From assembly GCA_963754615.1 (NCBI GenBank), contig CAVWGW010000018.1, positions 7,160 to 71,159 on the forward strand: a DNA stretch of 64,000 bases, in the 5' to 3' direction. Position numbers and translations under genes: made by a program. The DNA comes from an uncultured Chloroflexia bacterium (GTDB taxonomy: Bacteria > Chloroflexota > Anaerolineae > Anaerolineales > UBA4823). Shown in pieces: positions 9,458 to 27,757 of this stretch. Under the pieces are notes generated by a model. The model ran no database searches. It saw nothing but the letters and a program-made list of their open reading frames with translations, and was not told the origin of the DNA. The stretch's first letter is position 1; each line of letters starts with the position of its first letter.

Positions 9458-9628
9458 CTGATTGTCTCCTTTGTTTAACACTTTAGCAGGAATCGTGTAG
9501 AAATGCAAGACCCAAATTCGATAAAAACACTCCGTTTTATGGAATTGTCATTGCGGCATGTGAATCCTTGTTGACGTGCATCCTTATATCATCTAAAATA
9601 AAACCGAATAACATAAAAGGAAGGATCT

Positions 9629-10699
9629 ATGAAGGATCAAATCATTTATCTCTACCCAGAAGTCTTTTCCGAAAAAGAAAAAGTTATCCTCTCTGCCGCT
9701 CCCTTCACCGCCTCTGTTTTTCGTTTTCCATCCGGTGTGTGTGGCCTGCGCATGAAAAACGACCAGGGCGCTTTGGTGATGCTTCCCTTTCAGGGTCAGC
9801 AGATCTGGACGGCAGAATTTAGTGGTCGAAACCTGACCATGAAATCCATGTTCGATGGACCTCATCCCACCCGTGTCTATTTGGAGAATTATGGCGGATT
9901 TTTACTGCACTGCGGGGCGACAGCGATGGGTGTGCCTACCGCTCAAGATACCCACCCGCTGCACGGAGAGCTTCCCAATGCCCCCTATGATGAGGCTTTC
10001 CTGGTTCTCGGAGAAGATGCGCGCGGTCCTTATCTTGGTTTAGGAGGCCGTTATCGCCATACGGTTGCCTTCAACCATAACTACCTGGCTGAGCCTCTGG
10101 TGAAGCTGTATGCTGCATCTACAGTCTTCTCGGTTGCTCTCACCATCACCAACCTCAAGCATTCACCCATGGAGCTGATGTATCTGGCGCATATCAACTT
10201 CCGCCCCGTTGTAAATGGTCGCCTGGTTTATAGTGCCCTCTGCACTCCAGAAACGGTACGCGTGCGCGGCAGCATTCCCTCCCATATCCGCCCTGGACCG
10301 GGTTACGCAGAATTTCTGCAGGAGCTCAAGAGCCATCCTGAAAAACATCATGTGCTGTCACCCGACCTGATGTTCGATCCGGAGGTTGTTTTCACCATCG
10401 AGTATCTTGCCGACGACAAGGGTTGGGCGCATACCCTTCAGATCCACCCCGATGGCAGCGCTGATTATGTTGCCCATCGCCCAGATCAGCTGGATAAAGG
10501 TGTACGCTGGATCTGCCGTACTGCCGACCAGGATGCCATCGGAATTGTCCTGCCAGCTACGGCTGAGCCTGAAGGTTACCTGGCGGAGAAATCCAAAGGC
10601 AACCTGAAATCCATTTCGACACAAGGTCAATTTACCTGTGAAATGCTGGTAGGTGCTCTCGGACCTTTACAGTGCCAAAGAAATGCAAGCCACCATTGA
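9629..10699 (+). CDS. Aldose 1-epimerase-like protein (DUF4432 type)
   Basis: 356-aa ORF with RBS AAGGAAGGA. The sequence pattern (HGELPNAPYDEAF..., YLAHINFRP) resembles a galactose-mutarotase-like fold, and a paralogue sits at 41148-42182. The C-terminus may continue in another frame (see findings). Confidence 0.6.
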   Translation: MKDQIIYLYPEVFSEKEKVILSAAPFTASVFRFPSGVCGLRMKNDQGALVMLPFQGQQIWTAEFSGRNLTMKSMFDGPHPTRVYLENYGGFLLHCGATAMGVPTAQDTHPLHGELPNAPYDEAFLVLGEDARGPYLGLGGRYRHTVAFNHNYLAEPLVKLYAASTVFSVALTITNLKHSPMELMYLAHINFRPVVNGRLVYSALCTPETVRVRGSIPSHIRPGPGYAEFLQELKSHPEKHHVLSPDLMFDPEVVFTIEYLADDKGWAHTLQIHPDGSADYVAHRPDQLDKGVRWICRTADQDAIGIVLPATAEPEGYLAEKSKGNLKSISTQGQFTCEMLVGALGPLQCQRNASHH

Positions 10700-10825: not shown

Positions 10826-12652
10826 ATGTTCGATATCAAAAATTTTCAGCCACTTCCGCCTGTCAACCGTCTGATCGGCGAAATGCCCAAGATCGGCATC
10901 CGACCCGTTATCGACGGGCGGCGCAAAGGCGTCCGCGAATCCCTCGGAGGATCAAGACCATGGCGCTCGCTAGCACCACAGCTGATTTTTTGAGCGCCAA
11001 TCTACGCCATTCCAATGGACTGCCAGTCGAATGTGTTATCTCCGATACCTGCATTGGGGGCGTGGCGGAGGCAGCTCAATCTGCGGAGAAATTTGCTCGC
11101 CTGGGCGTGGGTGTGTCGCTGACCGTAACCCCTGCTGGTGTTATGGCTCTGAGACGATGGATATGGATCCGCTGATTCCGAAGGCAGTGTGGGGTTTCAA
11201 CGGCACCGAGCGCCCTGGGGCAGTTTACCTGGCTGCTGTGCTGGCTGCCCACAACCAAAAAGGCCTGCCTGCCTTTGGCATCTATGGACATGATGTGCAG
11301 GATGCCGGAGACACTACCATCCCTGCCGATGTCCAGGAGAAGCTGCTGCGCTTTGCCCGCGCTGGCCTGGCTGTAGCTGCGATGAAGGGAAAATCATACC
11401 TCTCGATGGGTGGCGTTTCAATGGGCATCGCCGGCTCGATCGTCAACCAGGATTTCTTCGAGAGCTACCTGGGCATGCGTGTTGAAGTCATCGATGAGAG
11501 CGAGTTCATCCGCCGTATCCACGAGACGCATCTATGATCCCGATGAATACCAGCGCGCTCTCAAGTGGGTCAAGGGATACTGCAAAGAAGGCCGTGAATA
11601 TAATCCGCCCGCCATGCAGCGCAACCGCGCTCAGTAAAGATAACGATTGGGAATTCGTCGTTAAAATGACCATGATTGCCCGCGATCTAATGATCGGCAG
11701 CCCGCGCCTGGCGGAGATGGATTTTGGCGAGGAGGCCTTGGGACATAATGCTCTGGTTGGCGGCTTCCAGGGGCAGCGCCAGTGGACTGATCATTTCCCC
11801 AACGGCGATTTTATGGAAGCCATCTTGAACTCATCCTTTGATTGGAACGGCATTCGGGAGCCTTTCGTCTTGGCGACAGAAAACGATAGCCTGAACGGCG
11901 CTACGATGCTCTTTGGGCACCTGCTTTCCAATACCGCCCAGGTTTTTGCCGATGTCCGCACATATTGGAGTCCAGAGGCTGTCCAGCGGGTCACAGGTTA
12001 CCAGCTCTCGGGTCTGGCAGAGAACGGCTTTATCCACTTGATCAACTCAGGCGCGGCCACCCTGGATGCTACGGGGATGCTCAAGCGGGAGGGGGAGCCG
12101 GTCATGAAACCTTTTTGGGAGATCACCGCAGATGAAGTTGCCCAGTGCCTGGAGGCTACCACCTGGTATCCAGCCCGTACCGAATATTTTCGCGGCGGCG
12201 GGTACTCTTCCGGTTTCCTGACCCGCGGCCAAATGCCCGTTACCATGTCGCGCCTTAATTTGGTCAAGGGTCTTGGCCCGGTTTTACAGCTTGCTGAAGG
12301 CTATACGGTGGACCTGCCTGATGATGTTTACCAGAAGTTAAATGAGCGCACCGATCCCACCTGGCCTACCCACTGGTTTGTGCCTCGCCTTACCGGCAGC
12401 GGTCCTTTCCGAGATGTGTATTCCGTGATGAATCACTGGGGCGCCAACCACGGGGCGTTAAGCTATGGTCACATCGGCGCGGACATGCTCTCCCTGGCTT
12501 CTCTATTACGCATTCCGGTCACCATGCACAATGTTTCAGAAGAGAAGGTTTTCCGTCCCAGTGTATGGAATGCATTTGGAGCCCAGGATCCGATGGGCGC
12601 TGATTACCGGGCTTGCGTAAATTTCGGACCTCTTTATGGAAAGTGGGCATGA
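10826..12652 (+). pseudogene. fucI: L-fucose isomerase, split over five frame segments (four single-nucleotide frame changes)
   Basis: The segments join end to end against E. coli FucI as I recall it:
- 10826 to ~10949, frame +2: [26 protein letters not shown]
- ~10951 to 11132, frame +1: [42 protein letters not shown]
- 11133 to ~11525, frame +3: [43 protein letters not shown]
- ~11527 to 11634, frame +1: [18 protein letters not shown]
- 11636 to 12652, frame +2: [43 protein letters not shown]
RBS AAGGAGA is at 10814-10820. Confidence 0.8.
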
Positions 12653-14136
12653 GTCCTGACAAAGCGGACTTGTTGGCTTTCGACTTGGGGGCTGAGAGTG
12701 GGCGAGCCATCCTCGGGCATTTCCGAGATGATTTGCTCAAGTTGGAAGAAATTTATCGCTTCCCAAATAATCCAGTGCAGGTTCAAGGCAGCCTGCACTG
12801 GGATGTTCTGCAGCTTTGGAGTGAAATTCAGCAGGGCCTGAAGTTGGCTGCACAGTCTTGCGGGAGTGATCTGCGCGGAGTGGGGGTGGATACCTGGGGG
12901 GTTGATTTTGGCTTGTTGGCTGAAGATGATACCTTGATCGGCAACCCTTACCATTACCGTGATAGCCGTACAGATGGAATGGTGGAATGGGCCTTCCAAC
13001 GTCTGCCTCGCCAGGAGATCTACCAGGTGACCGGCATCCAGTTCATGCAGTTGAACAGCCTTTTCCAGCTGTTGGCGATGGTGAAAAGCCGCGCCCCGGC
13101 CCTGCGAATTGCTAGGCATTTCTTGACCATGCCCGATTTGTTCAACTTTTGGCTCACTGGGCGCAAAGCGAATGAGTTCAGCATTGCCACGACCACCCAG
13201 TGTTTAACCCCAATTTGGGAGATTGGGCCTGGGAGATGCTCCGGAAGCTGGATATCCCCACGCATCTTTTTGGCGAGGTCATACAGCCCGGCACCATCGT
13301 CGGCGAGCTGCGCCAGGCGATTGCAGAAGAATGCGGCTGCGCTCAAATTCCCGTGCTGGCTCCCGCCACGCACGATACCGGTTCAGCAGTCGCAGCTGTG
13401 CCTGCCAGGACTCCCGATTATATCTTTCTCAGCTCGGGCACCTGGTCTTTAATGGGGGTAGAGCTGAGCCAGCCTCTCATCACTCCCGAATCCCTGGCCT
13501 ATAATTTCACCAATGAAGGGGGCGTTTGTGGTACCATCCGTTTCTTGAAGAATATCATGGGTCTTTGGTTGGTGCAGGAGTGCCGCCGCGATTGGGCGCG
13601 GGCGGGATTATCTTACACCTACAATGAGCTAACGACCATGGCCTCCCAGGCTCCAGCCTTCATGGCTTTTATCGATTTCGAGCGATGCACGCTTCCTGCA
13701 TCCCGGCGATATGGTTTCTCGCCTGCAGGATTATTGCCAGGAGACCGGCCAGCCTATCCCTGAAACACCCTCAGCCATCATCCGCTGCTGCCTGGAATCC
13801 CTGGCACTCGAATACCGTTGGGTTGCCGAGAGCCTCGAAAAGCTTCTCGGGCGTTCCCTGCCCGTCATCCATATTATTGGAGGCGGCTCGCAAAATACCC
13901 TGCTGAACCAGTTTACCGCCGATGCTGCCGGGCGTGAGGTGGTCGCCGGACCGGTTGAAGCCACTGCCATCGGTAACCTGCTCATCCAGGCTTTAGGCTT
14001 AGGATTGTTCTCTTCCCTTTCCGAGGCGCGGGCGGTGGTTCGGAATTCATTCGATGTTTCGCATTACTCGCCCAGGGATCATCACGCCTGGGAAGCTGCT
14101 TACAGCACCTACCTGAAGCTCAAGAAAGCCTCTTGA
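12649..14136 (+). pseudogene. Rhamnulokinase-family FGGY kinase (L-fuculose/L-rhamnulose kinase), split over three frame segments
   Basis: ATGA overlap with the fucI stop. Frame +1 reads [31 protein letters not shown] to ~13203. Frame +3 reads FNPNLGDWAWEML..ATHDTGSAVAAVP..LSSGTWSLMGVE..FTNEGG..LKNIMGLWL..AFIDFE to ~13682. Frame +1 resumes with DARFLHPGDMVSRLQDYCQETGQPIPE..IHIIGGGSQN..VVAGPVEATAIGN to 14136. Confidence 0.8.
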
Positions 14137-14183
14137 AAAACTGGTAAAATCTTTGTGTTAAAATCACCCTTTGAGGATTAATC

Positions 14184-15323
14184 ATGCCAAAGAAAGTATT
14201 CGTCAGCGGGTGTTACGATTTATTACACAGCGGTCATGTGGAGTTCTTTCAGGAAGCTGCCAAATTTGGCGACCTATATGTCGCCTTGGGTTCGGATAAG
14301 ACGGTATATGATTTAAAGGGGCGTGTACCCGTAAACAACGAGGCAGAGCGTCTTTTCATGGTCAAGTCGGTGGCTTGTGTAAAGGATGCTTTCATCTCCC
14401 AGGGCTCCGGAATGCTGGATTTTCTTGACGAGCTGAAGCAGATCAAGCCGGATTATTTTATTGTCAACGAAGATGGCAACCTCCTGGAGAAGAAGAAGCT
14501 GTGCGATGAGCTGGGGATTGGATACAAGATCTTGAGGCGGGAGCCACATGCCGGGCTGGCTCCCCGCTCGACGACTTCGCTGCGCGCTATCAACACCATT
14601 CCCTTTCGTATCGATGTGGCAGGGGGATGGCTTGACCAGCCCTTTGTGTCAAAATATTATCCTGGTCCGGTCATCACGATTTCCCTTGAGCCAACCGTGG
14701 ATTTTAACGATCGCAGCGGCATGGCTTCCAGCACGCGCCGCAGTGCCATTGACTTGTGGGGTCCCCGCCTGCCTGCCGGCGATCCGGAGAAATTGGCAAA
14801 GATCTTATTTTGTTATGATAACCCCCCCGGCACGAAAGAAATCTCCGGCTCTCAAGACGCCATTGGGATTGTCTTTCCGGGTTTGAATAAATCCTGGTAT
14901 GAAGGTGAGTATTGGCCATCCCGTATCGAATCCGTCCAGGATGAGCATACCTTGCAGTTCATTGAAAAATCTTTGAACCTTGTACCCTTAGCGCCGCGTG
15001 CCTCTGGTTTCAGCGTTCTGAGCAATACCTCCATTGACCGGATGCGCGCCAAAGATTTATCGGATGCTGCCGAAGGCTGTTGGGATGCCATCCTTCGTCG
15101 AGATGTTGTTCAATTCGGGCTGTACTTTCGTAAAGCCTTTGAAGGTCAAATTGCCATGTTTCCCAACATGATGAATGATATGGTCGTCGAGTTGATCGAG
15201 CAGTACCGTTCCCAGGCTTTGGGGTGGAAGCTGTCTGGAGCAGGAGGTGGCGGTTATTTGATCCTCGTTTCTGATCGGCCGATCGAAAATGCCATCCAGA
15301 TTCTCATCCGCCGCAAGGATTGA
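14184..15323 (+). CDS. Fusion protein: N-terminal cytidylyltransferase-like nucleotidyltransferase plus C-terminal GHMP-kinase-like (fucokinase/heptose kinase-like) domain
   Basis: The N-terminus VFVSGCYDLLHSGHVEFF carries the HxGH motif of the CTP-transferase-like family. The C-terminal half has SGMASSTRRSA (GHMP motif II-like) and KLSGAGGGGYLILV (GHMP motif III). Confidence 0.7.
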   Translation: MPKKVFVSGCYDLLHSGHVEFFQEAAKFGDLYVALGSDKTVYDLKGRVPVNNEAERLFMVKSVACVKDAFISQGSGMLDFLDELKQIKPDYFIVNEDGNLLEKKKLCDELGIGYKILRREPHAGLAPRSTTSLRAINTIPFRIDVAGGWLDQPFVSKYYPGPVITISLEPTVDFNDRSGMASSTRRSAIDLWGPRLPAGDPEKLAKILFCYDNPPGTKEISGSQDAIGIVFPGLNKSWYEGEYWPSRIESVQDEHTLQFIEKSLNLVPLAPRASGFSVLSNTSIDRMRAKDLSDAAEGCWDAILRRDVVQFGLYFRKAFEGQIAMFPNMMNDMVVELIEQYRSQALGWKLSGAGGGGYLILVSDRPIENAIQILIRRKD

Positions 15324-15352
15324 AAATAAATTTTGAATAAGGAGGAAAGATA

Positions 15353-16309
15353 ATGAAAAAAGCGTTGGTTTGTGGTGCTGGTGGCTTCATTGGAGGTCAC
15401 CTGGTTAAGAAACTAAAGCAGGAAGGTTACTGGGTACGTGGAGTGGACATTAAAGAGCATGAATTTGAGGTCACCCATGCCGATGAATTCTTGCGTCTAG
15501 ATTTGCGGGTGCCTCAGAACTGCCAGGCTGCCCTGACCCTCTCAGGAGGGAAGTTGGATGAAGTGTATCAGCTGGCAGCCGACATGGGTGGGATGGGCTT
15601 TATTCATTCTGCCGAGTGTGAGATCATGCACAACAGCGCCTTGATCAACATCTATATGACTCACCATGCTGCAGAGATGGGCATCCCGCACTACTTCTTT
15701 TCTTCCTCGGTGTGTGTCTATCGCGATATGCAGCCCGGTGAGCCAGAGATGACAGAAGCCCAGGCTATCCCAGCCCACCCGGATAATGAATACGGCTGGG
15801 AGAAGCTCTATTCGGAGCGCATTGCAATGGCCTATGCCCGCCGGTATGGTATGCAAGTCAGGATTGCGCGCTTCCAGAATTGTTATGGTCCTTACGGAAC
15901 CTGGCGGGGTGGGCGCGAAAAAGCCCCGGCTGCCATCTGTCGTAAAATTGCCGAAGTAGAAGATGGTGGAACTATTGAGGTATGGGGCGATGGCTCAGCG
16001 ATACGTTCTTACACCTATGTGGCGGATATGGTCGATGGAATCTTTCGCTTGATGCACTCTGACCTGGAAGGCGCGGCGAATATTGGCTGCCCGCAGTATG
16101 TCACTGTCGAGGAGCTGGTCCGAACCGTCGCCGATGTGGCTGGAAAAACCATCCATGTAAAGCACGTTGCTGGACCGGTGGGAGTACAATCGCGCAATTT
16201 CAGCAATGCCCGCATCGAATCGCTCGGCTGGCAGGCAAAATATTTCTTGAAAGACGGCATTTCCCAGACTTATCCTTGGATTAAATCCCAGGTGAAAGCA
16301 TTAAAATAA
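15353..16309 (+). CDS. GDP-mannose 3,5-epimerase-like NAD-dependent epimerase (SDR, extended)
   Basis: GAGGFIGGHL Rossmann motif. LAADMGGMGFI, YGWEKL, GPYGTWRGGREKAPAAICRK and VWGDGSAIRSYTYV track plant and bacterial GME closely as I recall them. Confidence 0.75.
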   Translation: MKKALVCGAGGFIGGHLVKKLKQEGYWVRGVDIKEHEFEVTHADEFLRLDLRVPQNCQAALTLSGGKLDEVYQLAADMGGMGFIHSAECEIMHNSALINIYMTHHAAEMGIPHYFFSSSVCVYRDMQPGEPEMTEAQAIPAHPDNEYGWEKLYSERIAMAYARRYGMQVRIARFQNCYGPYGTWRGGREKAPAAICRKIAEVEDGGTIEVWGDGSAIRSYTYVADMVDGIFRLMHSDLEGAANIGCPQYVTVEELVRTVADVAGKTIHVKHVAGPVGVQSRNFSNARIESLGWQAKYFLKDGISQTYPWIKSQVKALK

Positions 16310-16328: not shown

Positions 16329-16375
16329 GATTTTCACCGCGTACGCCGTGGTTTCGCGGTGAAATCTTTATTTTC
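16329..16375 (+). terminator. Probable intrinsic terminator after the epimerase gene
   Basis: TTCACCGCG (16333-16341) pairs with CGCGGTGAA (16355-16363), followed by TTTATTTT. It overlaps a minus-strand ORF (16334-16858) that I consider spurious. Confidence 0.6.
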
Positions 16376-16390
16376 AAAAGGAACTCCTGG

Positions 16391-18376
16391 ATGGTTAAAA
16401 CCTTTTCGAAATTTTATGAGCTTCCCATCACTTCCATCCAGCCGCGCGGCTGGCTGCGTGGGTACCTGGAGACCCAGCGCGACGGCCTGACCGGTCACCT
16501 GGAAGCCGCCGGTTTCCCTTTCGATCAAGGTGGCTGGGCGAACCATGCGATCAGCCACCAATCCGGCTCCACCTGGTGGCCTTATGAGCAGACTGGTTAC
16601 TGGTTGGATGGGATGGTGCGTTGCGGGATCTTGCTGAATGATCCCTTCCTGATCGAGAAAGCTCGCCAGCCCATCGAATATACCTTGCAGCACGCCGATA
16701 CCGACGGTTACCTTGGGCCTGCCTTTATGAAGCAGCCCCTCCCTGGAAAACGTTGGGGCAGCAACAATCGCTGGCCCCATACCATCTTCTTCAGGGCGCT
16801 GATCGCCTATGATCAGTTTATTGGCGGAGACCGCCTCGCTCAGGCGGTGAGGCGGCATTATCTTTCAGAGACCAGCCCTCATTCCGAAGCGCGGGACGTA
16901 ACCAATGTAGAGACGATGCTGTGGGCATATGATCGCACCGGCGATGACCGCTTACTTGAATTGGCAAAGAGCGCCTTTATTGAGTATAACCAGGGAAAGC
17001 CACTCCCAGATACTTCGCTGGCTGACCTGCTCTCTGACAGGCGTGCCACAGTCCATGGGGTTACCTTCAACGAGATTGGCAAACTGGGCGCGGTTTTATA
17101 TCGGTATACTGGTAATCGGATGTACTTGGATTCTACAGTGAACGCCTATCGCAAGCTCGATCTCGACCAGATGCTTGTCGACGGAGTCAACAGTTCCTCA
17201 GAAGCCTTGCGCGGTAAGGATCCCCTCGACAGTCATGAAACCTGCGATATCGCCGATTACACCTGGGGGGTAGGCTATCTCCTGTTGGCTCTGGGTACAG
17301 GCGATTATGCAGATAAGATCGAACGTGCCTGTTTCAATGCTGCTCCGGGTGCTGTGCGCAGCGATTTCAAAGGGCTGCAGTATTTCTCCTGCCCAAACCA
17401 GGTGGTTGCTACCCGTGCCTCCAATCATAATAAATATTTCCACGGCAGCTCTTGGATGTCGTACCGGCCCAATCCAGGCACGGAGTGCTGCCCGGGTGAG
17501 GTCAACCGCATCATGCCCAATTATGTCTCCCGCATGTGGCTTTCCGACGGGCAGGGCGGCCTGGTGGCGGCCCTGTATGGTCCCAGCCAGGTGACGGCCC
17601 GCCTGGGCGAGGCTGCGCAAGAGGTAACCATCCTGGAAGATACTACCTATCCTTTTTCTGAGCGTATCGATTTCCAACTAAAGATGTCTGAGCCGGTTGA
17701 ATTTCCGCTTTCATTACGTATCCCGGGCTGGTGCAAGGCGGCAGAGCTCTTGCTTAATGGGCAGCCTGTCAAAATGACTCATTCTCCGGGGCGTTTTGTC
17801 ACCCTGGAACGCCGCTATCGTGATGGGGACCGCATCTCCCTGCTGTTGCCGATGTCTTTGCGCATGCAGCACTGGCCTCGTGCTGGGGTTAGCCTGGAAC
17901 GCGGCCCACTGGTTTTTTCGTTGCGTATTGAAGAAGATTGGCAAATGGATCCCGATGACCTGCGCTCGACGCCAGATTTTCCTGCCTGGGATCTTTACCC
18001 GGCTTCCACCTGGAACTATGCCCTGGCCCTCGACCCAGAGAACCTCGAGAAACAGGTGAGAGTCATCCAGGGGGAATACTCGGATCATCCCTGGAGTATT
18101 GCTGCCGCTCCGCTCACTTTGCAGGTGCCTGCCCGCCGCCTCATTGGTTGGAGTGTACAGAAAAAGACCGGCATCCTCACCTCTTTTGGCCGGGTGAATA
18201 AGCGCATGAAAGGCAGCTTTGTCTTCACCCCCCAGCTTCCCAACCCCGATGGAATTGCGCAGCGCCTGGGTAAGCAGGTAGAAATGGTCACCCTGGTCCC
18301 GTATGGCTGCTCCAAGCTGCGCATCACGATCTTCCCCTTCACTTATACCCCCCGTCAATCTACAGATATGGATTAA
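16391..18376 (+). CDS. GH127-like beta-L-arabinofuranosidase family protein (DUF1680)
   Basis: 661 aa. The N-terminal pattern is WLRGYLETQRDGLTGHLE..WWPYEQTGYWLDG. The Cys-rich catalytic/zinc region SHETCDIADY ... GTECCPGEVNR matches the Cys3-Glu arrangement of HypBA1-type enzymes. Confidence 0.75.
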   Translation: MVKTFSKFYELPITSIQPRGWLRGYLETQRDGLTGHLEAAGFPFDQGGWANHAISHQSGSTWWPYEQTGYWLDGMVRCGILLNDPFLIEKARQPIEYTLQHADTDGYLGPAFMKQPLPGKRWGSNNRWPHTIFFRALIAYDQFIGGDRLAQAVRRHYLSETSPHSEARDVTNVETMLWAYDRTGDDRLLELAKSAFIEYNQGKPLPDTSLADLLSDRRATVHGVTFNEIGKLGAVLYRYTGNRMYLDSTVNAYRKLDLDQMLVDGVNSSSEALRGKDPLDSHETCDIADYTWGVGYLLLALGTGDYADKIERACFNAAPGAVRSDFKGLQYFSCPNQVVATRASNHNKYFHGSSWMSYRPNPGTECCPGEVNRIMPNYVSRMWLSDGQGGLVAALYGPSQVTARLGEAAQEVTILEDTTYPFSERIDFQLKMSEPVEFPLSLRIPGWCKAAELLLNGQPVKMTHSPGRFVTLERRYRDGDRISLLLPMSLRMQHWPRAGVSLERGPLVFSLRIEEDWQMDPDDLRSTPDFPAWDLYPASTWNYALALDPENLEKQVRVIQGEYSDHPWSIAAAPLTLQVPARRLIGWSVQKKTGILTSFGRVNKRMKGSFVFTPQLPNPDGIAQRLGKQVEMVTLVPYGCSKLRITIFPFTYTPRQSTDMD

Positions 18377-18477
18377 TTTTAAAAAAATCAGCGCTCTCAG
18401 CGACCCTGCGTTAAAATGATCTCGTATGAGATCGAATTTCTCATAAGCATCTTTTGTTTTATCAAGGAGAATTATCC

Positions 18478-19500
18478 GTGCTTCAAGCTGTCATGACTGC
18501 CCCCGGTCAAATTGAGTTTCACCAGGTCGAAAAGCCTTCTCCCCGTCCGGGTGAGGTTTTGATCCGCATGCGCCGCATTGGCGTGTGCGGTTCCGATATC
18601 CACGTCTTCCACGGCAAACACCCCTACACCAGCTACCCGGTCGTCCAGGGACACGAAGTCTCCGGTGAGGTAGCCCAGGTGGGGGAGGGTGTGAAAGGTC
18701 TTCAACCCGGCGACCTGGTCACCTTCACGCCCCAGGTCACCTGCGGTGTGTGTTATCCCTGCCGCCACGGTATGTACCACATCTGCGACAACCTGAAGGT
18801 CATGGGCTTCCAGACTGGCGGCGCCGCACAGGAATACTTCCCCGTCCCGGTCGAAAAGGTTCTCAAGCTCCCGGCTGGGATCACCCCCGATCAGGCCGCC
18901 ATGATTGAACCCGTCTCGGTGGCTGTGCATGCCCTGGGCCGCGTTGGCGATGTCGCTGGGAAACAGGTGCTCGTCTTAGGTGCCGGCACCATCGGCAATC
19001 TCGTTGGCCAGGTGGCTAAAGCCCTCGGCGCTCGTAAAGTGCTCATGACTGATGTCAGCGCTTACAAATTGGAAAAGGCCCGCCTCTCCGGCATCGATGC
19101 CATTGTTAACACCCAAGCTGAAGAGCTCGGACCTGCTCTCTTGCGGGAGTTCGGCCCCGATAAAGCCGACCTTATCCTCGAATGCGTTGGTGTGCAGGAA
19201 ACCATCACCCAGGCGGTCTCGTTAGCGCGCAAAGGCTCAACCATTGTGGTTGTAGGTGTCTTCGGTCAAAAACCCCAGGTTGACCTGGGATTGGTGCAGG
19301 ATCGCGAGCTGAGCCTCGTGGGAACGCTCATGTACCAGCGCTCCGATTATGTCCAGGCTATCGACTTGGTCTCGCAGGGTAAGCTGAACCTGGATGTCCT
19401 TGTGTCTGATCATTTCCCCTTCGCCCAGTACTTAGAGGCTTATCATAAGATCGAAGCTGCCCAGGGAAACATCATGAAGGTGATGATTGATCTGGGCTAA
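18478..19500 (+). CDS. Zn-dependent medium-chain alcohol/polyol dehydrogenase
   Basis: GVCGSDIHVFHGKHP, GHEVSGEV, the structural-zinc Cys cluster CGVCYPCRHGMYHIC and GAGTIGNL are present. I preferred the GTG start at 18478, 7 nt after AAGGAGA; the ORF track TTG start is 18454. Confidence 0.85.
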   Translation: MLQAVMTAPGQIEFHQVEKPSPRPGEVLIRMRRIGVCGSDIHVFHGKHPYTSYPVVQGHEVSGEVAQVGEGVKGLQPGDLVTFTPQVTCGVCYPCRHGMYHICDNLKVMGFQTGGAAQEYFPVPVEKVLKLPAGITPDQAAMIEPVSVAVHALGRVGDVAGKQVLVLGAGTIGNLVGQVAKALGARKVLMTDVSAYKLEKARLSGIDAIVNTQAEELGPALLREFGPDKADLILECVGVQETITQAVSLARKGSTIVVVGVFGQKPQVDLGLVQDRELSLVGTLMYQRSDYVQAIDLVSQGKLNLDVLVSDHFPFAQYLEAYHKIEAAQGNIMKVMIDLG

Positions 19501-19512
19501 AGGTTCCCAATT

Positions 19513-21003
19513 ATGAAAACTGCTCGTTTTGAAGTGTTGAGTCAAACTGAGATCGAACGCATCCATTCCGCCTCGATGGAAATTCTAGCCGATGTGGGTA
19601 TCAAAGTCAATTTCAAGAAAGCTCGCGACATATTCCGCGAAGCTGGGGCCGATGTGGATGAGCAGTCCCTGGCGGTCAAGATCCCAGAGAAGCTCGTTCG
19701 TTGGGCGGTGGACCAGGTGCCAAAACAGTTTTCTCTCTTCGGGATCGATGGCGAATTTCATCTGAATATCGGCCCTGATCAAACTGCACCTGTCTTTGCT
19801 GGCCTGGGAACTCCCACACGGATGATCGATTTGGAAAGTGGTGCAATCCGCCCCGCGACCAAACAGGATATGATCGATCATATTATTTTGATAGACGCTT
19901 GCAGCCATATCCACAATTCCCAAATGGACATTTGGCCTGACGATATCCCCATGACGACCATCCACTCGGAGGCGATTTGGGCCTGGGCACACCATAGTCG
20001 AAAACCCTATGGCATGGGTTGTTATGGCTATCTGCCCACTTGGGATATGATGCGCATGATGGCGATTGCGGTTGGCGGAAAGGAAGAGCTGAAGAAACGA
20101 CCGCGCTTCTTCGCGATTTGCTCTGTGGTCAGCCCGTTGCAAATGGATCAGGCGCAAGCCGAAGGGTTGTTGATTTGTGCCGAATACGGGCAGCCGGTCA
20201 CGCTGGCTCCTGAAGCCATCGCTGGATCTACAGCACCTGTGACCTTAGCTGGTTTGGTTGCCCAGGAAAATGCAGCTATTTTGGCGCATATCACCCTGGC
20301 GCAAATCTTCCGCCCTGGAACTCCGGTTATGTATGGGACAGTCTCTACCACAGCCAATATGCGTTATGGTACGGTCACCCTTGGGTCGATGGAAACGGGC
20401 TTGATCACCGCGGCCTCTGCGCAGATGGCTCGATTTTATGGGTTACCGATCCGCAGCGTGGGTGGTGCCACCGAGGCCAAGCGCGCGGACCTGCAGGCAG
20501 GTTTTGAGCGCATGGGTACACTGCTCCCGGCAGTATTGGCAGGAGTTAACCTGATCACCTGTGCGGGCACCCTTGACAGCACCATGCTGGAGAGTCACGC
20601 TCTACTCTTGCTGGATGATGAGATCTGTGGAGCAGCTCTTAGGTTAGCACGCGGCATTTAGGTTAATGAAGATACGCTTGCTCTAGATTTGATCAAGAAG
20701 GTGGGCTTTTCAGGCAACTACATTTCTGCGAAAGAAACCTCCCGGCTTTTTCGTAAAGAGTTATTTATCCCGACCCTGTTTTCACGCGAGCCCTTTGAAA
20801 CCTGGGAAAAAGAAGGCAGCCGGCTTGCCATCGACCATGCTCGAGATCGCGCAATTGAAATTCTTGCCAAACACCAACCTCGTGAAGTGGACCCAATTCT
20901 TGAAAATGAGTTGGATCGCTTCCGCCAGTCCGTCGCGGCGCGCAACCTGGAAGATTTTTATCTTTTCGAGACCGAAGAAAAACAGGATTACACCGCTTTA
21001 TGA
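19513..21003 (+). pseudogene. MttB-superfamily methyltransferase (non-pyrrolysine type) containing one in-frame TAG at 20659-20661
   Basis: ORFs 19513-20661 and 20689-21003 are in the same frame, separated only by TAG and in-frame sense codons (...ALRLARGI-TAG-VNEDTLALDLIKKVGFSGNYIS...). Together they give about 496 codons, the normal MttB-family length. The canonical Pyl position (AGSOSDAK in M. barkeri MttB as I recall it) reads VGGATEAK here. Confidence 0.65.
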
Positions 21004-22361
21004 GTACAAAATCACAATCTAAGCTACCCTTGCGTACGAAGCTTCTTTTCAGCACTGGCGATCTGAGCACCAGCATCCCCCTGGCAATCCTGATGTTCTT
21101 CCAGCTCTATTTCCTGACGGATGTAGCCGGTCTCCGCCCCGCGTATGCCGGGTGGGCCATTGGCGCCAGCCGTTTATGGGATGCCGTCAACGATCCCCTC
21201 ATCGGCTTGCTCTCAGACCGACTCCGCACCCGTTGGGGACGCCGACGGGTTCTGTTGCTCTTTGGCGCAGTTCCATTGGGTGTCTTTTTTATGCTCATGT
21301 GGATTGTTCCGGCACTCAACCAATTCTGGATGGCGGTCTATTACGCAGTGACTTTCATCTTATTCGACACGGCCTTTACGGTCGTGCATGTCGGATATAA
21401 CGCCTTAACCCCCGAAATGACATCCGATTATGACGAGCGCAGCTCGCTGAACGGTTATCGGATGGTGTTTTCGATTGCTGGTTCTTTGGGTGCGATCATC
21501 CTTGCCACCGTGTTGGGGTGGAGAATCACGGATCCTCGTTTGCTTTACCTCATTCTGGGGATCGGCTTAGGCATCATCTCCATGATCCCGCCGTTTATCG
21601 TTTTCAACATAACCCGTGAACGGCCTGCCGATGAGCTTCCCAGGTCTTTACCGTTTGGTCAAGCCATCAAACAAACCCTGGGCAACCGCCCTTTTCGCCT
21701 AGTCATGGGCTTATATTTGCTAAGTTGGACGACTGCCAGCATCCTGGCAGCGGTATTAATTTATTTTGCCACCTATTACCTGCGCATTCCTGACCAGGCC
21801 AATTACTTTGTATTGGTGGCGCAGGGTATGGCGATCTTGTTCATCCCTGTGATTGTTAAAATCTCCCAACGCCTCGATAAGCGGCGCTCTTTCATGATCG
21901 GATCCCTTGCCTGGGTAATCGCCCTTCTTGGCATCTCCGCTCTGCGCGCTGACCAGTTTATTCTGGCCTATTTCCTGACAGCGCTAGCTGGTTTTGGTAT
22001 TGCCACCGCTTATGTGGTGCCTTGGGCTATGGTGCCGGACGTAATTGAATACGATGAGTTGCGCAGTGGGCAACGCCGAGAGGGTTCGTACTATGCATTT
22101 GCATCCTTTTTCCAGAAGCTGGCTACGGGGGTGGCTTTATGGGGAATGGCACAGGCTTTTGCTTTGACGGGTTACCTGACACCCTCTCTTTCTGAACCTG
22201 TACCCGTTCAACCCCAGGTAGCCATTAACGCCATCCGTATGTTTACCGGACCCATCCCGGCAATTTTGCTGATCTTGGCTGTAGTGTGTGCCTGGAAATA
22301 TCCCATCACGCGTGAAAGCCACCAGGCCACTCTGAAAGCGTTGGCTGAACGGGAAACATAA
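21000..22361 (+). CDS. GPH-family (glycoside-pentoside-hexuronide) cation symporter, MFS
   Basis: ATGA overlap with the MttB-family stop. The MelB-like N-terminus is FSTGDLSTSIPLAILMFFQLYFLTDVAGL...WDAVNDPLIGLLSDRLRTRWGRRR, with about 12 TM helices. Confidence 0.85.
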   Translation: MSTKSQSKLPLRTKLLFSTGDLSTSIPLAILMFFQLYFLTDVAGLRPAYAGWAIGASRLWDAVNDPLIGLLSDRLRTRWGRRRVLLLFGAVPLGVFFMLMWIVPALNQFWMAVYYAVTFILFDTAFTVVHVGYNALTPEMTSDYDERSSLNGYRMVFSIAGSLGAIILATVLGWRITDPRLLYLILGIGLGIISMIPPFIVFNITRERPADELPRSLPFGQAIKQTLGNRPFRLVMGLYLLSWTTASILAAVLIYFATYYLRIPDQANYFVLVAQGMAILFIPVIVKISQRLDKRRSFMIGSLAWVIALLGISALRADQFILAYFLTALAGFGIATAYVVPWAMVPDVIEYDELRSGQRREGSYYAFASFFQKLATGVALWGMAQAFALTGYLTPSLSEPVPVQPQVAINAIRMFTGPIPAILLILAVVCAWKYPITRESHQATLKALAERET

Positions 22362-22362
22362 A

Positions 22363-23619
22363 ATGGACGATTACGATTTCGAGACCCTGGCAGTCCATGC
22401 CGGTGAAGAGGCTGATCCCTCTACCGGAGCTCTGCGCCTGCCTTTGCACATGGCTACCACCTTCAAGCTGCCCAAGTTCGGGATCAAGCTGTTCGATGCC
22501 CTGACAATGGATTCAGCCAACCCGCCCTTTGCTTATACGCGCTGGGGCAATCCTACCTTGCGCGCTTTAGAAGAACGCCTTTCTGCGCTGGAAAGTGCTG
22601 AAACCGCTGTTGTGACCGCCAGCGGGATGGCGGCAGTATCCGCTTTGATTTTCACCTTCTTGAGCAGCGGTGACCACCTGATCGCTAGCGAAGTCTGTTA
22701 TGCAGGTACGGTCGAGCTGTTTGGGCTGTACCTGAGGCGTTTCGGTATCGAAGTCAGCCTGGTAGATACCAGTGATTTAGAAGCGGTTCAAGCAGCACTC
22801 CAGCCTAATACAAAGATGATCTATGCTGAAACACCCGCTAATCCCATTCTGCGCATCTCGGATATTTCGGAACTATCCAAGATCGCACATGCAACCGGAG
22901 CCTTGCTGGCAATTGACTCCACTTGGGCTAGCCCTGGCTTGCAAAAGCCTATCGCACTGGGCGCCGACCTTGTTGTGCACAGCCTGACGAAATACTTGAA
23001 TGGGCATGGCGATGCTTTGGGCGGCGTTGTACTCGGCGCGCAAAGAAACATACAGCGCATCCGAAAAGAGATGCTGGTACACCTGGGCGGCGCCCTCAGC
23101 CCTTTCAACGCCTGGCTCATCCTGCGTGGCCTGGTCACGTTGCCCATGCGGATGATGCAGCACTGCCAGAACGCTCAGTCAATTGCTCAATTCCTGGAAA
23201 GCCATCCCAAGGTGGAGCGAGTGTTGTACCCGGGGCTGGAAAGTCACCCACATCATTTACTAGCCGCTCGTCAAATGACTGGTTATGGGGGGATGCTCAC
23301 TTTCCGCCTCAAAGGTGGGTTGGGTGCAGCCATCACGCTGGCAGAAAAGATCCGCTTGTTCTCTTATGCCACTTCACTCGGGCATGCCCACAGCTTGCTG
23401 TTTTTTTACCCAACCGATCTATACATCGATTCTTTACCTTTCTACACCCCTGAGCAAAAAGAGCGTATCCGCGAATGGACTGGCGAAGGGATCATACGTG
23501 CCAGTATTGGTTTGGAAAATGTTGATGATTTGAGACGCGATTTAGACCAGGCGCTATACGCACGCACCTTTAAGGGATGGCTCGGTCCGCTGGCATACCG
23601 AGTTATGAGGAAGCGTTAG
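22363..23619 (+). CDS. PLP-dependent Cys/Met-metabolism enzyme (methionine gamma-lyase / cystathionine gamma-synthase family)
   Basis: Starts 1 nt after the preceding stop. YTRWGNPT, the PLP-lysine context HSLTKYLNGHGDALGG and C-terminal IRASIGLE are present. Confidence 0.85.
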   Translation: MDDYDFETLAVHAGEEADPSTGALRLPLHMATTFKLPKFGIKLFDALTMDSANPPFAYTRWGNPTLRALEERLSALESAETAVVTASGMAAVSALIFTFLSSGDHLIASEVCYAGTVELFGLYLRRFGIEVSLVDTSDLEAVQAALQPNTKMIYAETPANPILRISDISELSKIAHATGALLAIDSTWASPGLQKPIALGADLVVHSLTKYLNGHGDALGGVVLGAQRNIQRIRKEMLVHLGGALSPFNAWLILRGLVTLPMRMMQHCQNAQSIAQFLESHPKVERVLYPGLESHPHHLLAARQMTGYGGMLTFRLKGGLGAAITLAEKIRLFSYATSLGHAHSLLFFYPTDLYIDSLPFYTPEQKERIREWTGEGIIRASIGLENVDDLRRDLDQALYARTFKGWLGPLAYRVMRKR

Positions 23620-24514
23620 TTACCTTTTCCCTCTCCGAGAGCACCATCCCAATCAAGATCAGCGTCATGCCGATCCCGCCCACCAGCGTAACGGTCTCGT
23701 GCAGCACCAGTACCGACGCAATTATCGTGATGATTGGCACGATGTAAATATATACGCTGGTCTTCACTGGGCCTAGGAGGTAGACTGCATAATTCCAGGT
23801 GAAAAAGCACATTGCCGAAGCCACAATCCCCAGGAAGATCAGGTTGAACAGGTTCGGCAGCACAGCCAGGCGCGCCAATCCCAGGTGGAAGTCGAAAAAA
23901 GGCAGGGTGGGAAGCAAGAAAAGAAAACCATAGAAAAAAACCTTGGCTGTCACGGCCAGCATCGAACTTTGCTGGGCACTGATTTTCTTGATTAACACGC
24001 TGTAGAACGCCCATACCAGCGCCGCTAGGATCGAGAGCAGATCACCCAGGGGATTTAGTTTTAGAACAACGCTTCCGTTAAAAGCGATCAGGATGATGCC
24101 TGTGATGGCTGCCGTGAAACCGATGAAGAAGTTGGCTTTGAGCTTTTCTTTCAAGAAGAGACGGCTGACCAGCGCGGTGAATAACGGGGCTATCGAAACC
24201 AGTACGCTGACATTGGCTGCCAGGGTGTAAGACAAGGCGATATTCTGGAACAGGAAATAGAGGGTCACGCCGCACAAACCTGCAGCCATAATTTTCCATT
24301 CATCTCTCAGGGTAGGTCTATCCAGTTTGACCTTGGATAGGCGCGGCGGGCTGACAATGAGCAGCACTAGAACGGCCAGGATCAGCCGGTAGAACATGAT
24401 CTCAACCGGTGAGAAGGGGACCAGCAGCACCTTGATGGAAATAAAGGTAATACCCCATACGAAGATCGTGAAAAAGGCGGCGAGATGCCCCAGGACTTGT
24501 TTTTGTGGTTTCAC
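23603..24514 (-). CDS. DMT-superfamily (EamA-like) transporter
   Basis: 303 aa, about 10 hydrophobic helices, two EamA-like repeats. Its 3' end overlaps the convergent PLP enzyme by 17 nt. Confidence 0.85.
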   Translation of the reverse strand: MKPQKQVLGHLAAFFTIFVWGITFISIKVLLVPFSPVEIMFYRLILAVLVLLIVSPPRLSKVKLDRPTLRDEWKIMAAGLCGVTLYFLFQNIALSYTLAANVSVLVSIAPLFTALVSRLFLKEKLKANFFIGFTAAITGIILIAFNGSVVLKLNPLGDLLSILAALVWAFYSVLIKKISAQQSSMLAVTAKVFFYGFLFLLPTLPFFDFHLGLARLAVLPNLFNLIFLGIVASAMCFFTWNYAVYLLGPVKTSVYIYIVPIITIIASVLVLHETVTLVGGIGMTLILIGMVLSEREKVTNASS

Positions 24515-24646
24515 TGGTGTCAGGTTATACCACTTTTTTAGATAAGTTTACAAAAGTGAAAGCTAACCCCGCCTTTTCTTTGGTTCTTGAAAAAAAAGTT
24601 ATATACTCAATTTTATAGAATCACAAGAAGACGTAAGGGAGAATTT

Positions 24647-27600: not shown

Positions 27601-27757
27601 AGAGGTGAACACCATGGACATCTTCATCGAGGTCAGCAGCACCGATGCGGATGGTAAGGAGACCAGTGAAGTGCATGAGTGTAAATTCACGGTTACCTCT
27701 TCGGCAGACGGTGTTATCGGGCCAGCCGATATGGTGAATTTGAATCAAGGTGAGTGA
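24647..27757 (+). CDS. Large membrane protein: N-terminal FHA domain, TM helix, ~700-aa region with HExxH (gluzincin-like), two further TM helices, acidic C-terminal tail
   Basis: ATG at 24647 lies after AAGGGAGA; the ORF track start is 24587. The FHA region is FSIGRTGDNDLVLDNTLVSRQHARL..DLNSANGVLINN. TM1 is WLPVLGVFGVVLCVCLAASAGVAAW. HELMH is at nt 26027-26041, followed by WWLEMAAENG. The C-terminal TMs are FALMAGSLLLALVWLVGI and ALLSLALLVGAVWLSGCVGFGIYG. Confidence 0.8.
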   Translation: MPNPNLLIYNATSQQWDRFPLNRQDFSIGRTGDNDLVLDNTLVSRQHARLHLDKRGVWIMDLNSANGVLINNTRIQPGQWVLLPGSAAINIGQSTLRLELASQPVQSIKPAQPAPRTPQKNKWLPVLGVFGVVLCVCLAASAGVAAWKNYPKLAGLLPGQTAQTQSQDPVPTPSAEPMTPPQTVETLPVSAGGLAVQDSYGVSVEIPASVLPEGQSASLESASFSQGMQQELEKAYTVNTLAYSVTAVDQDGTGQVNLSLPAPSADLRLAVLVNDKYTGVLDVEPQNGLLQLNLFLGAPLQASSAPTETQYIASNRYFVVTPKTGASIPSQGNNLRISFSMQAEDQGGKSCITEFWLQSHCWRNQAGTVYVFWENNVPADLKDTEYLRIEDMIKAVEEIMRAYHQDWHFNNAAISKSNPVYIIIDPSEPEPTYSQKTGNVYLNWGVVGSISSQENHCALAHELMHWTEDSAYTMNAAALSNSKAWWLEMAAENGSFMIDSACIDRNLETYGHAVTSSDLLPLQSESLVWESKEGARYIQALQVYVSLCSGGANCAMSQDQFVAAINAGSYPFDDAGVLSTYQRSAKDMGLFMMGKPPAEANTSAHLPPSTNEGGAFPEYIWLKAVPAPKIEVSDTTKQIQSTSSTEAAVNASIAQGGVYPLWVSNGKGSPGNPREGYTSLPVMLKIDAGTRFWYELDSGEAVFHDGGKELTLGPLSDKLGTGLVRLVAVAPDAAATFNAKVNPVDLSGDWVAQLSNPSVNIIDCPSSTDDDSENGFDTSEVDKIEMLSILSGYGTYAADPAVSDGSHLIWQGTLPEGATAELDITIKPEVIEVKYRIDIPRPDSEGLLPPWLGPKFGQTWPPRLQSAGWLNSLSGSPVGFALMAGSLLLALVWLVGIPRLKAYQEGHLAFSPRVVRFGNTALLSLALLVGAVWLSGCVGFGIYGNFEGTITFNKLEYLDPDAPASAVVPGGEAVEGLTWKLHEGQEVNTMDIFIEVSSTDADGKETSEVHECKFTVTSSADGVIGPADMVNLNQGE

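Follow-up and report, generated by a model that had tools for sequence, protein, structure and literature searches.

FKP of Bacteroides fragilis (PDB 5yys, 9iip and 9iit; NF009948) carries a GHMP fucokinase and a sugar-1-phosphate nucleotidyltransferase in one polypeptide of about 950 amino acids (aa), in which the transferase is a GlmU-like PF07959 domain with a beta-helix. HldE/RfaE is likewise bifunctional, combining a kinase with an HxGH-fold transferase that acts on a beta-sugar-1-phosphate; its kinase, however, is PfkB-type and N-terminal, phosphorylates O7, and needs a separate phosphatase and isomerase. We analyzed a 64,000-nucleotide stretch (hereafter, the window) from an uncultured Chloroflexia bacterium (contig CAVWGW010000018.1, assembly GCA_963754615.1), focusing on a gene for a 379-aa protein in which an HldE-type transferase fold is joined to an FKP-type kinase fold, and on the epimerase gene that follows it. 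The same two-domain architecture appears to be shared by a putative "fucose-nucleotidyltransferase," Amuc_1591 of Akkermansia muciniphila (PMC13313206; Gut Microbes 2026), which lies among murJ and envelope genes rather than beside an epimerase or in a fucose operon. Loss of Amuc_1591 function confers resistance to D-arabinose, and growth is rescued by L-fucose; the authors modeled the protein against 9iip and proposed that it forms an NDP-fucose, reporting no enzymology and leaving the nucleotide open (PMC13313206).

We propose that the 379-aa protein is probably a compact functional analogue of FKP, acting as an L-fucose/L-galactose 1-kinase and sugar-1-phosphate guanylyltransferase. Both catalytic steps are predicted, from the folds, intact motifs, FKP-like pocket, GM35E fingerprint of the neighbor, gene context and natural fusions described below. 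The C-terminal GHMP domain would use ATP to phosphorylate the anomeric hydroxyl of an L-galacto-configured sugar, yielding a beta-L-sugar-1-phosphate; the sugar would be L-fucose, and L-galactose and D-arabinose would likely serve as alternatives. The N-terminal HxGH domain would convert the sugar-1-phosphate and a nucleoside triphosphate, most likely GTP, into GDP-L-fucose or GDP-L-galactose with release of pyrophosphate, and the co-transcribed GDP-mannose 3,5-epimerase (GM35E, or GME) would interconvert GDP-L-galactose and GDP-D-mannose. The two-gene cassette would link free L-sugars, which in the window may be released by nearby glycosidases and imported via a GPH transporter, to the GDP-sugar pool of the cell. 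L-Fucose would be kept as GDP-L-fucose for glycan building, and L-galactose would be equilibrated with GDP-mannose.

Architecture of the fusion protein and the adjacent epimerase

The cassette comprises the following features.

14173..14176, + strand: ribosome-binding site GAGG, 7 nucleotides ahead of the fusion ATG (read from the sequence)
14184-15323, + strand: fusion gene, 379 aa (open reading frame [ORF] translation)
14184..14582, + strand: HxGH cytidylyltransferase-fold nucleotidyltransferase domain, aa 1-133 (Pfam, fold matches, motif conservation)
14586..15323, + strand: compact GHMP sugar kinase domain, aa 135-379 (VIA-align, HMMER, MAFFT)
15353..16309, + strand: short-chain dehydrogenase/reductase (SDR) of GDP-mannose 3,5-epimerase type, 318 aa (HMMER alignment to Arabidopsis GME [AtGME], 2c59)
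16344..16361, + strand: terminator-like hairpin with a T-rich tail 3' of the epimerase gene (weak evidence from a consensus scan)

The translated fusion contains VSGCYDLLHSGHVEFF, SGMASSTRRS and KLSGAGGGGYLILV, exactly as an earlier note on this DNA had quoted them, and its coordinates were likewise exact. That note had described an HxGH domain of the TagD/RfaE-domain-II type followed by a GHMP-kinase-like domain, and profile scans (Pfam and NCBIfam models against their cut-offs) and structure alignment (VIA-align Z scores) bore out both the domains and their order. PF01467 (CTP_transf_like) matched aa 7-97 with an E value of 1.3e-10 and 42 bits, above the gathering cut-off of 21, and the HxGH and R-x-S-T-T motifs are present. 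Across 34 diverse homologues sharing 31-79% identity, which also fed the AlphaFold model of the fusion, conservation is 90% or higher at H15-S-G-H18, K45, E55-R56 and R128-S-T-T131. In that model (mean pLDDT 92), aa 1-135 superpose on TagD (1coz, Z 18.3), the Fom1 CyTase (5x3d, Z 17.2) and 3glv (Z 17.1), with root mean square deviations of 1.6-1.9 (1.9 for TagD).

Neither of the known bifunctional enzymes accounts for the whole protein. The top NCBIfam match of the N-domain is rfaE_dom_II (TIGR02199), at 55.9 bits well under the cut-off of 181.5; no PfkB match was obtained, the HldE model NF008454 scored 43 bits against 521, and the kinase here is GHMP-type, C-terminal and predicted to be anomeric, unlike that of HldE. 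Similarly, no PF07959 match was found, and the FKP model NF009948 scored 51.6 bits against a cut-off of 721, aligning over positions 872-941 only. By sequence, the C-domain matches only this end of FKP (PDB 9iip, E 1.8e-10), and the Pfam GHMP_kinases_C model falls below its cut-off (17.9 versus 21). Relative to FKP, the transferase is an N-terminal HxGH Rossmann-type domain rather than a GlmU-like one, the linker helix domain is missing, and the kinase lacks about 90 N-lobe residues.

The structural alignment places the C-domain among whole GHMP kinases. In the AlphaFold model, aa 136-378 align to the heptokinase WcbL (4usk) with a Z score of 23.6 at 18% identity and to the FKP fucokinase (9iip) with a Z score of 21.6 at 26% identity; Z scores to WcbL, FKP, galactokinases and mevalonate kinases all lie between 21 and 24. 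At 243 residues it is shorter than every kinase matched in this alignment and is an unusually small GHMP kinase. Motif I is PFRIDVAGGWLDQP (PFRIDVAGGW), motif II is RSGMASST, the catalytic segment is D212..G222-S-Q-D225, and motif III is GAGGGGY.

In FKP, residues R592, W599, D601, T602, E751, G759, Q761 and D762 bind fucose-1-phosphate or are catalytic, holding the C2-C4 hydroxyls of the ligand and including the general base (PMC11982464). HMMER aligned PFRIDVAGGWLDQP to FKP 590-603, so that R142, W149, D151 and Q152 fall on R592, W599, D601 and T602, respectively. MAFFT, run with four FKP-type kinase domains, placed D212..G222-S-Q-D225 on FKP E751..G759-W-Q761-D762 and aligned the GAGGGG motif. 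The fucokinase sugar-binding and catalytic residues are accordingly represented by R142, W149, D151, D212, Q224 and D225, and these positions are conserved across the 34 homologues; the Glu751 position is Asp212 here and Glu in most homologues. The heptose kinase 3k85 carries Gly where FKP and the compact kinases have Trp (HMMER alignment). The possibility raised in the earlier note, that the C-domain might lack an intact ATP-binding P-loop, did not materialize, because motif II, S-G-M-A-S-S-T, corresponds to S-G-L-G-T-S-S of FKP; this correspondence was matched by eye, since MAFFT misplaces the segment. FKP accepts L-fucose, L-galactose and D-arabinose, and its pocket for the C5 substituent makes no specific contacts.

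The epimerase gene begins 29 bp past the end of the fusion gene. Its product aligned to Arabidopsis GME end to end (residues 4-315; HMMER, E 4.4e-78). GM35E enzymes are defined by S143, C145, Y174, K178, N203, K217, R243 and R306 in AtGME numbering, comprising the SDR triad S143/Y174/K178 and the acid/base pair C145/K217 (PMC8787198), and all eight are identical in the window epimerase. The earlier description of a close GME homologue therefore stands, and the protein is of GME type rather than a UDP-sugar 4-epimerase; nor is ORF 15353-16309 a GalE or an Fcl. Both genes are under purifying selection, each with a ratio of nonsynonymous to synonymous substitution rates (dN/dS) of 0.059 against the closest relative locus, L092, which is 90% identical to the window and served as the reference for dN/dS and for mapping indels.

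Gene context, natural fusions and distribution

Context and co-occurrence were counted in 301 sampled genomes from the class to which the window's genome, itself 85% complete, belongs. Orthologs of the window epimerase (at least 70% identity) were present in 23 of these genomes. The compact fusion immediately precedes the ortholog in three of the 23, namely, G132, G282 and the window's genome; in five others, all from one Anaerolineae family, a canonical FKP-type gene takes this place. These FKP-type genes, which turned up by chance, encode 1026-1132 aa and contain, besides both the N and C domains of GHMP kinases, a PF07959 domain (E 1e-72 to 1e-75) (L112, L113, L114, L118 and L119, in G187, G042, G085, G125 and G283). 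They end 0-40 bp ahead of the epimerase, sometimes overlapping it, except in L119, where about 0.5 kb and a small ORF intervene. We found no description of an FKP-GME pairing in the literature. No FKP-type gene was found in the 85%-complete genome of the window, and canonical Fkp was found neither in 41 sampled Bacteroidota genomes nor in 5 fusion-bearing genomes. Judged from the sequences, the exchange of the compact fusion for canonical FKP upstream of the same epimerase is a non-orthologous displacement, and two unrelated transferase solutions in one slot argue for the same job.

Natural fusions point the same way. One protein (P0273) is a triple fusion of Gmd, cytidylyltransferase and kinase, its Gmd part scoring 449 bits on TIGR01472 (cut-off 415) and its cytidylyltransferase-kinase part being 47% identical to the window fusion (P0001); it adjoins a further SDR gene with Epimerase and GDP_Man_Dehyd matches, possibly Fcl, in an O-antigen-like locus. 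Others join Gmd to the kinase (P0210), a RhaM-type mutarotase to the cytidylyltransferase and kinase (P0124), or a GT2 or other glycosyltransferase domain to the kinase. By the Rosetta-stone argument, the Gmd, mutarotase and glycosyltransferase fusions support a predicted role in L-fucose/L-galactose activation.

The wider surroundings also feature fucose genes. In four Anaerolineae lineages, FucI is a direct or close neighbor of the fusion; in one locus (L003) the fusion-GME pair is surrounded by an ABC importer, DeoR, FucI and a dehydrogenase. A Bacteroidota locus (L022) has the order GH29 fucosidase, fusion, MFS transporter, RhaM mutarotase, and a Bifidobacteriaceae metagenome-assembled genome has exosortase, fusion, GT4. 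A GM35E-type gene is present in 16 of the 21 kinase-bearing genomes of the class and in 22 of the 280 others, counts that overstate the association because related genomes are not independent. The neighbors of epimerase orthologs across the class are for the most part biosynthetic, including GT1/GT4 (7), ABC-2 exporters (5), GT2 (4), Polysacc_synt_2 (4) and Wzy_C (3). With FKP in the same slot, the fusions described above and GH29 beside the paralogous modules described below, the salvage and activation of L-fucose or L-galactose suggested in the earlier note has gained support.

The architecture is widespread. A length-matched search returned at least 8000 homologues, of which the best 120 are all 378-400 aa long and 70-96% identical, with names no more specific than "cytidyltransferase-like protein." An exhaustive search of 50%-identity representatives gave 255 clusters at E values of 1e-30 or below, including stand-alone kinase forms of about 245 aa and longer fusions. 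The ESM Atlas holds many clusters from Bacteroidota and Chloroflexota under the same generic name, and homologues of the fusion are annotated only as "cytidyltransferase family protein." An HxGH-keyed scan of genome contigs retrieved 80 loci, mostly unrelated single-domain transferases, with only about 13 full-length relatives; in PLSDB plasmids, tblastn with the fusion protein matched the N-domain only, in ordinary cytidylyltransferases. The earlier claim that the domain combination is distinct from Fkp and HldE consequently holds for the parts, which differ, but not in the sense of an unusual protein, there being thousands of homologues; of the alternative it had raised, a common and already characterized family, "common" applies and "characterized," in the biochemical sense, does not. 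Most likely, the fusion is a widespread FKP analogue made from different parts.

The window's genome holds two further modules, outside the window, that are built of separate genes. One (L090; G000:C6:109391-115593) has the order TetR, GH29, GME-like gene (44% identical to the window epimerase, full fingerprint), 265-aa kinase; the other (L091; G000:C7:275864-282920) has LacI, GME-like gene, GH29, kinase, tandem-cytidylyltransferase protein, ManC-type remnants, GH39. The split module recurs in G187, G132 and G283, and a GME-like gene lies within 3 kb of 11 of about 15 split kinases.

Several features of these modules were noted in passing. Their second-type GME-like epimerases are 42-44% identical to that of the window, the full GM35E fingerprint having been checked for the C6 copy, and frameshifts split the C7 kinase and the C6 melibiase. 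The transferase partner in split modules is a tandem of two cytidylyltransferase domains of about 280 aa (L091:10196-11017; also L095, L096 and L097), the first of them degenerate, with RSHH instead of HxGH; the arrangement recalls the pseudo-dimer of ethanolamine-phosphate cytidylyltransferase. Right after the tandem gene, two short mannose-1-phosphate guanylyltransferase fragments (G000:C7:281070-281378; model positions 3-30 and 300-354) appear to be what is left of a ManC-type gene that was deleted.

Nucleotide, substrate and direction of flux

Several points weigh against the proposed FKP-like activity. GTP is inferred only because the linked partners (GM35E, Gmd and the FKP displacement) are GDP-dependent. 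We know of no HxGH-fold enzyme that uses GTP with a sugar-1-phosphate, and the closest characterized enzyme, HldC/RfaE-II, uses ATP. The only published relative, from Akkermansia, is just 29% identical and within the N-terminal half alone (BLASTP with L016, which has the same architecture and is the presumed Amuc_1591 ortholog; fusion aa 3-176, the rest unaligned), and no enzymology was found in the literature for any member of the compact fusion subfamily. The roughly 90 residues absent between motifs I and II (MAFFT, against FKP) would carry the predicted adenine contacts, which in FKP are D644, M645, P666 and I669 (PMC11982464); therefore, ATP binding must differ or depend on the other domain or on a partner subunit. 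The pairing is optional, as the epimerase adjoins only 3 of the 12 full-length fusions in the class sample. In addition, a preference for L-fucose or L-galactose is not readable from the conserved pocket residues.

Three alternatives concern what the protein does. It is unlikely, in our assessment, that the transferase uses ATP or CTP to make ADP- or CDP-L-fucose or L-galactose, with the GME-like enzyme acting on that nucleotide sugar: the families nearest to the N-domain (rfaE_dom_II, TagD, ECT and PPAT) are indeed ATP- or CTP-dependent and the Akkermansia study leaves the nucleotide open (PMC13313206), but all linked partners, namely, the full-fingerprint GM35E, the Gmd fusions and the GTP-using FKP in the same slot, are GDP-sugar enzymes. 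Less likely still is that the truncated GHMP domain does not phosphorylate at all and instead binds sugar or sugar-1-phosphate for the transferase, or acts as a sensor. The missing N-lobe residues with FKP's predicted adenine contacts, the subthreshold GHMP_kinases_C score and the view of the Akkermansia authors that the C-domain is a substrate-binding part (PMC13313206) all suit such a role; however, the catalytic Arg, the base Asp, an acidic side chain at the Glu751 position, the Ser-rich phosphate loop and GAGGGG are conserved across more than 250 clusters at 50% identity, which is not expected in a noncatalytic domain and therefore weighs against mere binding, and stand-alone kinase versions of about 250 aa exist. 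We regard as highly improbable a heptose or other sugar phosphate as the substrate, in the manner of HddA/WcbL plus HldC. Although WcbL is the best structural match of the kinase and the top NCBIfam match of the N-domain is a heptose-1-phosphate adenylyltransferase domain, sequence identity is higher to FKP (26% versus 18%), the family keeps the D/Q sugar ligands and the FKP-specific Trp, the latter replaced by Gly in a heptose kinase, and the contexts contain fucosidase, fucose isomerase, mutarotase and Gmd but never heptose genes.

If the FKP-like chemistry proposed here is accepted, its end use may lie in either direction. It might serve catabolic growth on L-galactose, a use that we consider possible but doubtful. 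As in the Leloir pathway (GalK, GalT and GalE), an anomeric kinase, a nucleotide sugar and an epimerase would lead to a central hexose, the difference being that activation would be by a pyrophosphorylase-type transferase rather than by uridylyl exchange. The steps would be L-galactose, L-galactose-1-phosphate, GDP-L-galactose, GDP-D-mannose, mannose-1-phosphate, mannose-6-phosphate and fructose-6-phosphate, with GDP-mannose pyrophosphorylase running in reverse; the GM35E equilibrium favors GDP-mannose. The window context (DUF4432, fucI, FGGY kinase, GH127, dehydrogenase and GPH transporter) and that of L003 fit this use, as do the ManC-type remnants after one split module and a ManC-like gene in the genome, but the best argument for it is the sugar-regulated, glycosidase-rich split modules themselves, two paralogs of which occur in the window's genome under TetR or LacI control with GH29. 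Against it, epimerase orthologs occur mostly among glycosyltransferases, ABC-2 exporters, Wzx/Wzy and Wzz, and the kinase fusions to Gmd and glycosyltransferases point to biosynthesis. No dedicated GDP-mannose-cleaving enzyme lies within the window, and the 85%-complete genome yielded no VTC2-like gene (DUF4922), in which respect the system also differs from the plant Smirnoff-Wheeler pathway, with GME and the HIT-type VTC2, although the epimerase is plant-type. Our literature search found no published description of such an L-galactose route. The pair could conversely be purely biosynthetic, which we likewise consider possible but doubtful: an envelope glycan containing L-galactose would draw on GDP-L-galactose that the epimerase produces de novo from GDP-mannose, the fusion would form the salvage arm of the same GDP-L-sugar pool, and the adjacency to fucose catabolic genes would be incidental. 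FKP-GME pairs head polysaccharide loci (with a flippase and glycosyltransferase in L119 and a UDP-glucose dehydrogenase in L118) and the G132 fusion-GME pair comes after a Wzz/GNVR gene; these contexts favor GDP-L-sugar supply. There is also the parallel with loci combining Gmd, a neighboring SDR and the cytidylyltransferase-kinase, and bacterial GM35E has been proposed to serve lipopolysaccharide synthesis (PMC6678494). In the window, L092 and L003, however, no glycosyltransferase or exporter lies near the pair, which sits amid sugar catabolic genes on one strand. Both uses share a core that we consider most likely, in which free L-fucose and free L-galactose enter the GDP-sugar pool through the cassette, for glycan building or glycolysis.

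If the activity is as proposed, it would give a function to a widespread, generically annotated family whose members, numbering in the thousands, come from Chloroflexota, Bacteroidota, Verrucomicrobiota and other groups; bacterial L-fucose salvage would be far commoner than the narrow distribution of FKP suggests, and chemoenzymatic glycan synthesis would gain a handy one-pot enzyme of 379 aa that makes GDP-L-fucose or GDP-L-galactose. The plant-type GDP-mannose 3,5-epimerase paired with the fusion offers a testable hypothesis for bacterial L-galactose use or supply. To our knowledge, the sole bacterial L-galactose route is oxidative. The three modules in one genome may represent an undescribed route via GDP-L-galactose and GDP-mannose. 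Conceivably, though we would not presume it, the fusion is the first HxGH-fold sugar-1-phosphate guanylyltransferase, carries the smallest known GHMP kinase, and forms part of a GDP-based Leloir counterpart for L-galactose.

Neighboring genes in the window

The cassette is flanked by the following features.

9571-9599: promoter-like site ahead of the DUF4432 gene (consensus scan, at shuffle level)
9629..10699, + strand: DUF4432 protein, head of the cluster (Pfam PF14486, E 5e-17; syntenic in L092 and L093)
10826..12652, + strand: L-fucose isomerase gene (fucI) with five single-base indels (Pfam Fucose_iso domains over two ORFs; tblastn)
12613..14136, + strand: FGGY sugar kinase gene of rhamnulokinase/fuculokinase type (fucK) with two single-base indels (Pfam FGGY_N/C over three ORFs)
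16391..18376, + strand: distant GH127-family glycoside hydrolase, 661 aa (Pfam catalytic domain E 9e-18, middle domain E 2.4e-21)
18454..19500, + strand: zinc-type alcohol/polyol dehydrogenase (Pfam ADH_N and ADH_zinc_N; best NCBIfam matches below cut-offs)
21000..22361, + strand: GPH-family glycoside:cation symporter (Pfam MFS_2 E 2e-98; TIGR00792 270.6 bits against a cut-off of 231)

Promoter and terminator scans returned site numbers at the level of shuffled sequence. We take the DUF4432 protein to be possibly mutarotase-like from its clan assignment. The GH127 gene reported earlier after the epimerase was confirmed by its catalytic and middle domains; on the NCBIfam aceric acid hydrolase model it reached just 89.7 bits (cut-off 950). 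The L-arabinose link drawn from it is unsupported, the window and its closest relative being the only places where GH127 adjoins the pair.

L092 has unbroken copies of both genes, fucI (605 aa) and that of the FGGY kinase (495 aa), and the intact FGGY ortholog scores 517 bits on TIGR02627. Against L092, the fucI indels map to about 10947, 10959, 11135, 11529 and 11634 (tblastn frame changes) and those of the FGGY kinase to about 13205 and 13681; none occurs in the fusion or GH127, and the epimerase has one, at its divergent 3' end (16299). The fucI and fucK indels within 10826-14136 mostly lie outside homopolymers. Computed in the reference frame, dN/dS was 0.029 for fucI, the lowest among eight genes, and 0.158 for the FGGY kinase, so that both broken genes appear to be under strong purifying selection. 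Our first reading, that these are true pseudogenes, was dropped as the likeliest after the fucI value was obtained: the seven breaks are probably assembly or consensus errors rather than decay, because the five fucI indels come without excess amino acid change. The window's genome shows further split genes. Frameshifts also affect the L092 assembly, where genes unbroken in the window are interrupted: window 24587-27757, a single 1056-aa ORF, corresponds there to three called genes (311, 334 and 354 aa, with an FHA domain at the start). The fusion thus does lie between split fucI/FGGY genes and the epimerase, as had been noted, but the breaks in those genes are probably artefacts.

An MttB-family methyltransferase gene (19513-21003) carries a single in-frame TAG at 20659-20661 (..RGI*VNEDTLALD..), near positions 403-415 of the Pfam MTTB model. 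It looks like a nonsense change or error, not pyrrolysine, because the pyrrolysine site of true MttB lies earlier. Corrinoid methyltransferase parts (URO-D/MtaA-like, B12-binding and MttB-like) occur near the fusion-GME pair in two lineages (L003:1-7997 and window 19513-21003); it is pure speculation that they might act on O-methylated sugars, for example, 2-O-methyl-fucose. The MttB-like gene belongs to a segment of about 5.3 kb (window 18340-23620), together with the dehydrogenase, the GPH transporter and a pyridoxal phosphate enzyme, that corresponds to L092:14142-15929, where all that is kept is three short pieces of the dehydrogenase gene; the difference is a recent deletion in L092 or an insertion in the window.

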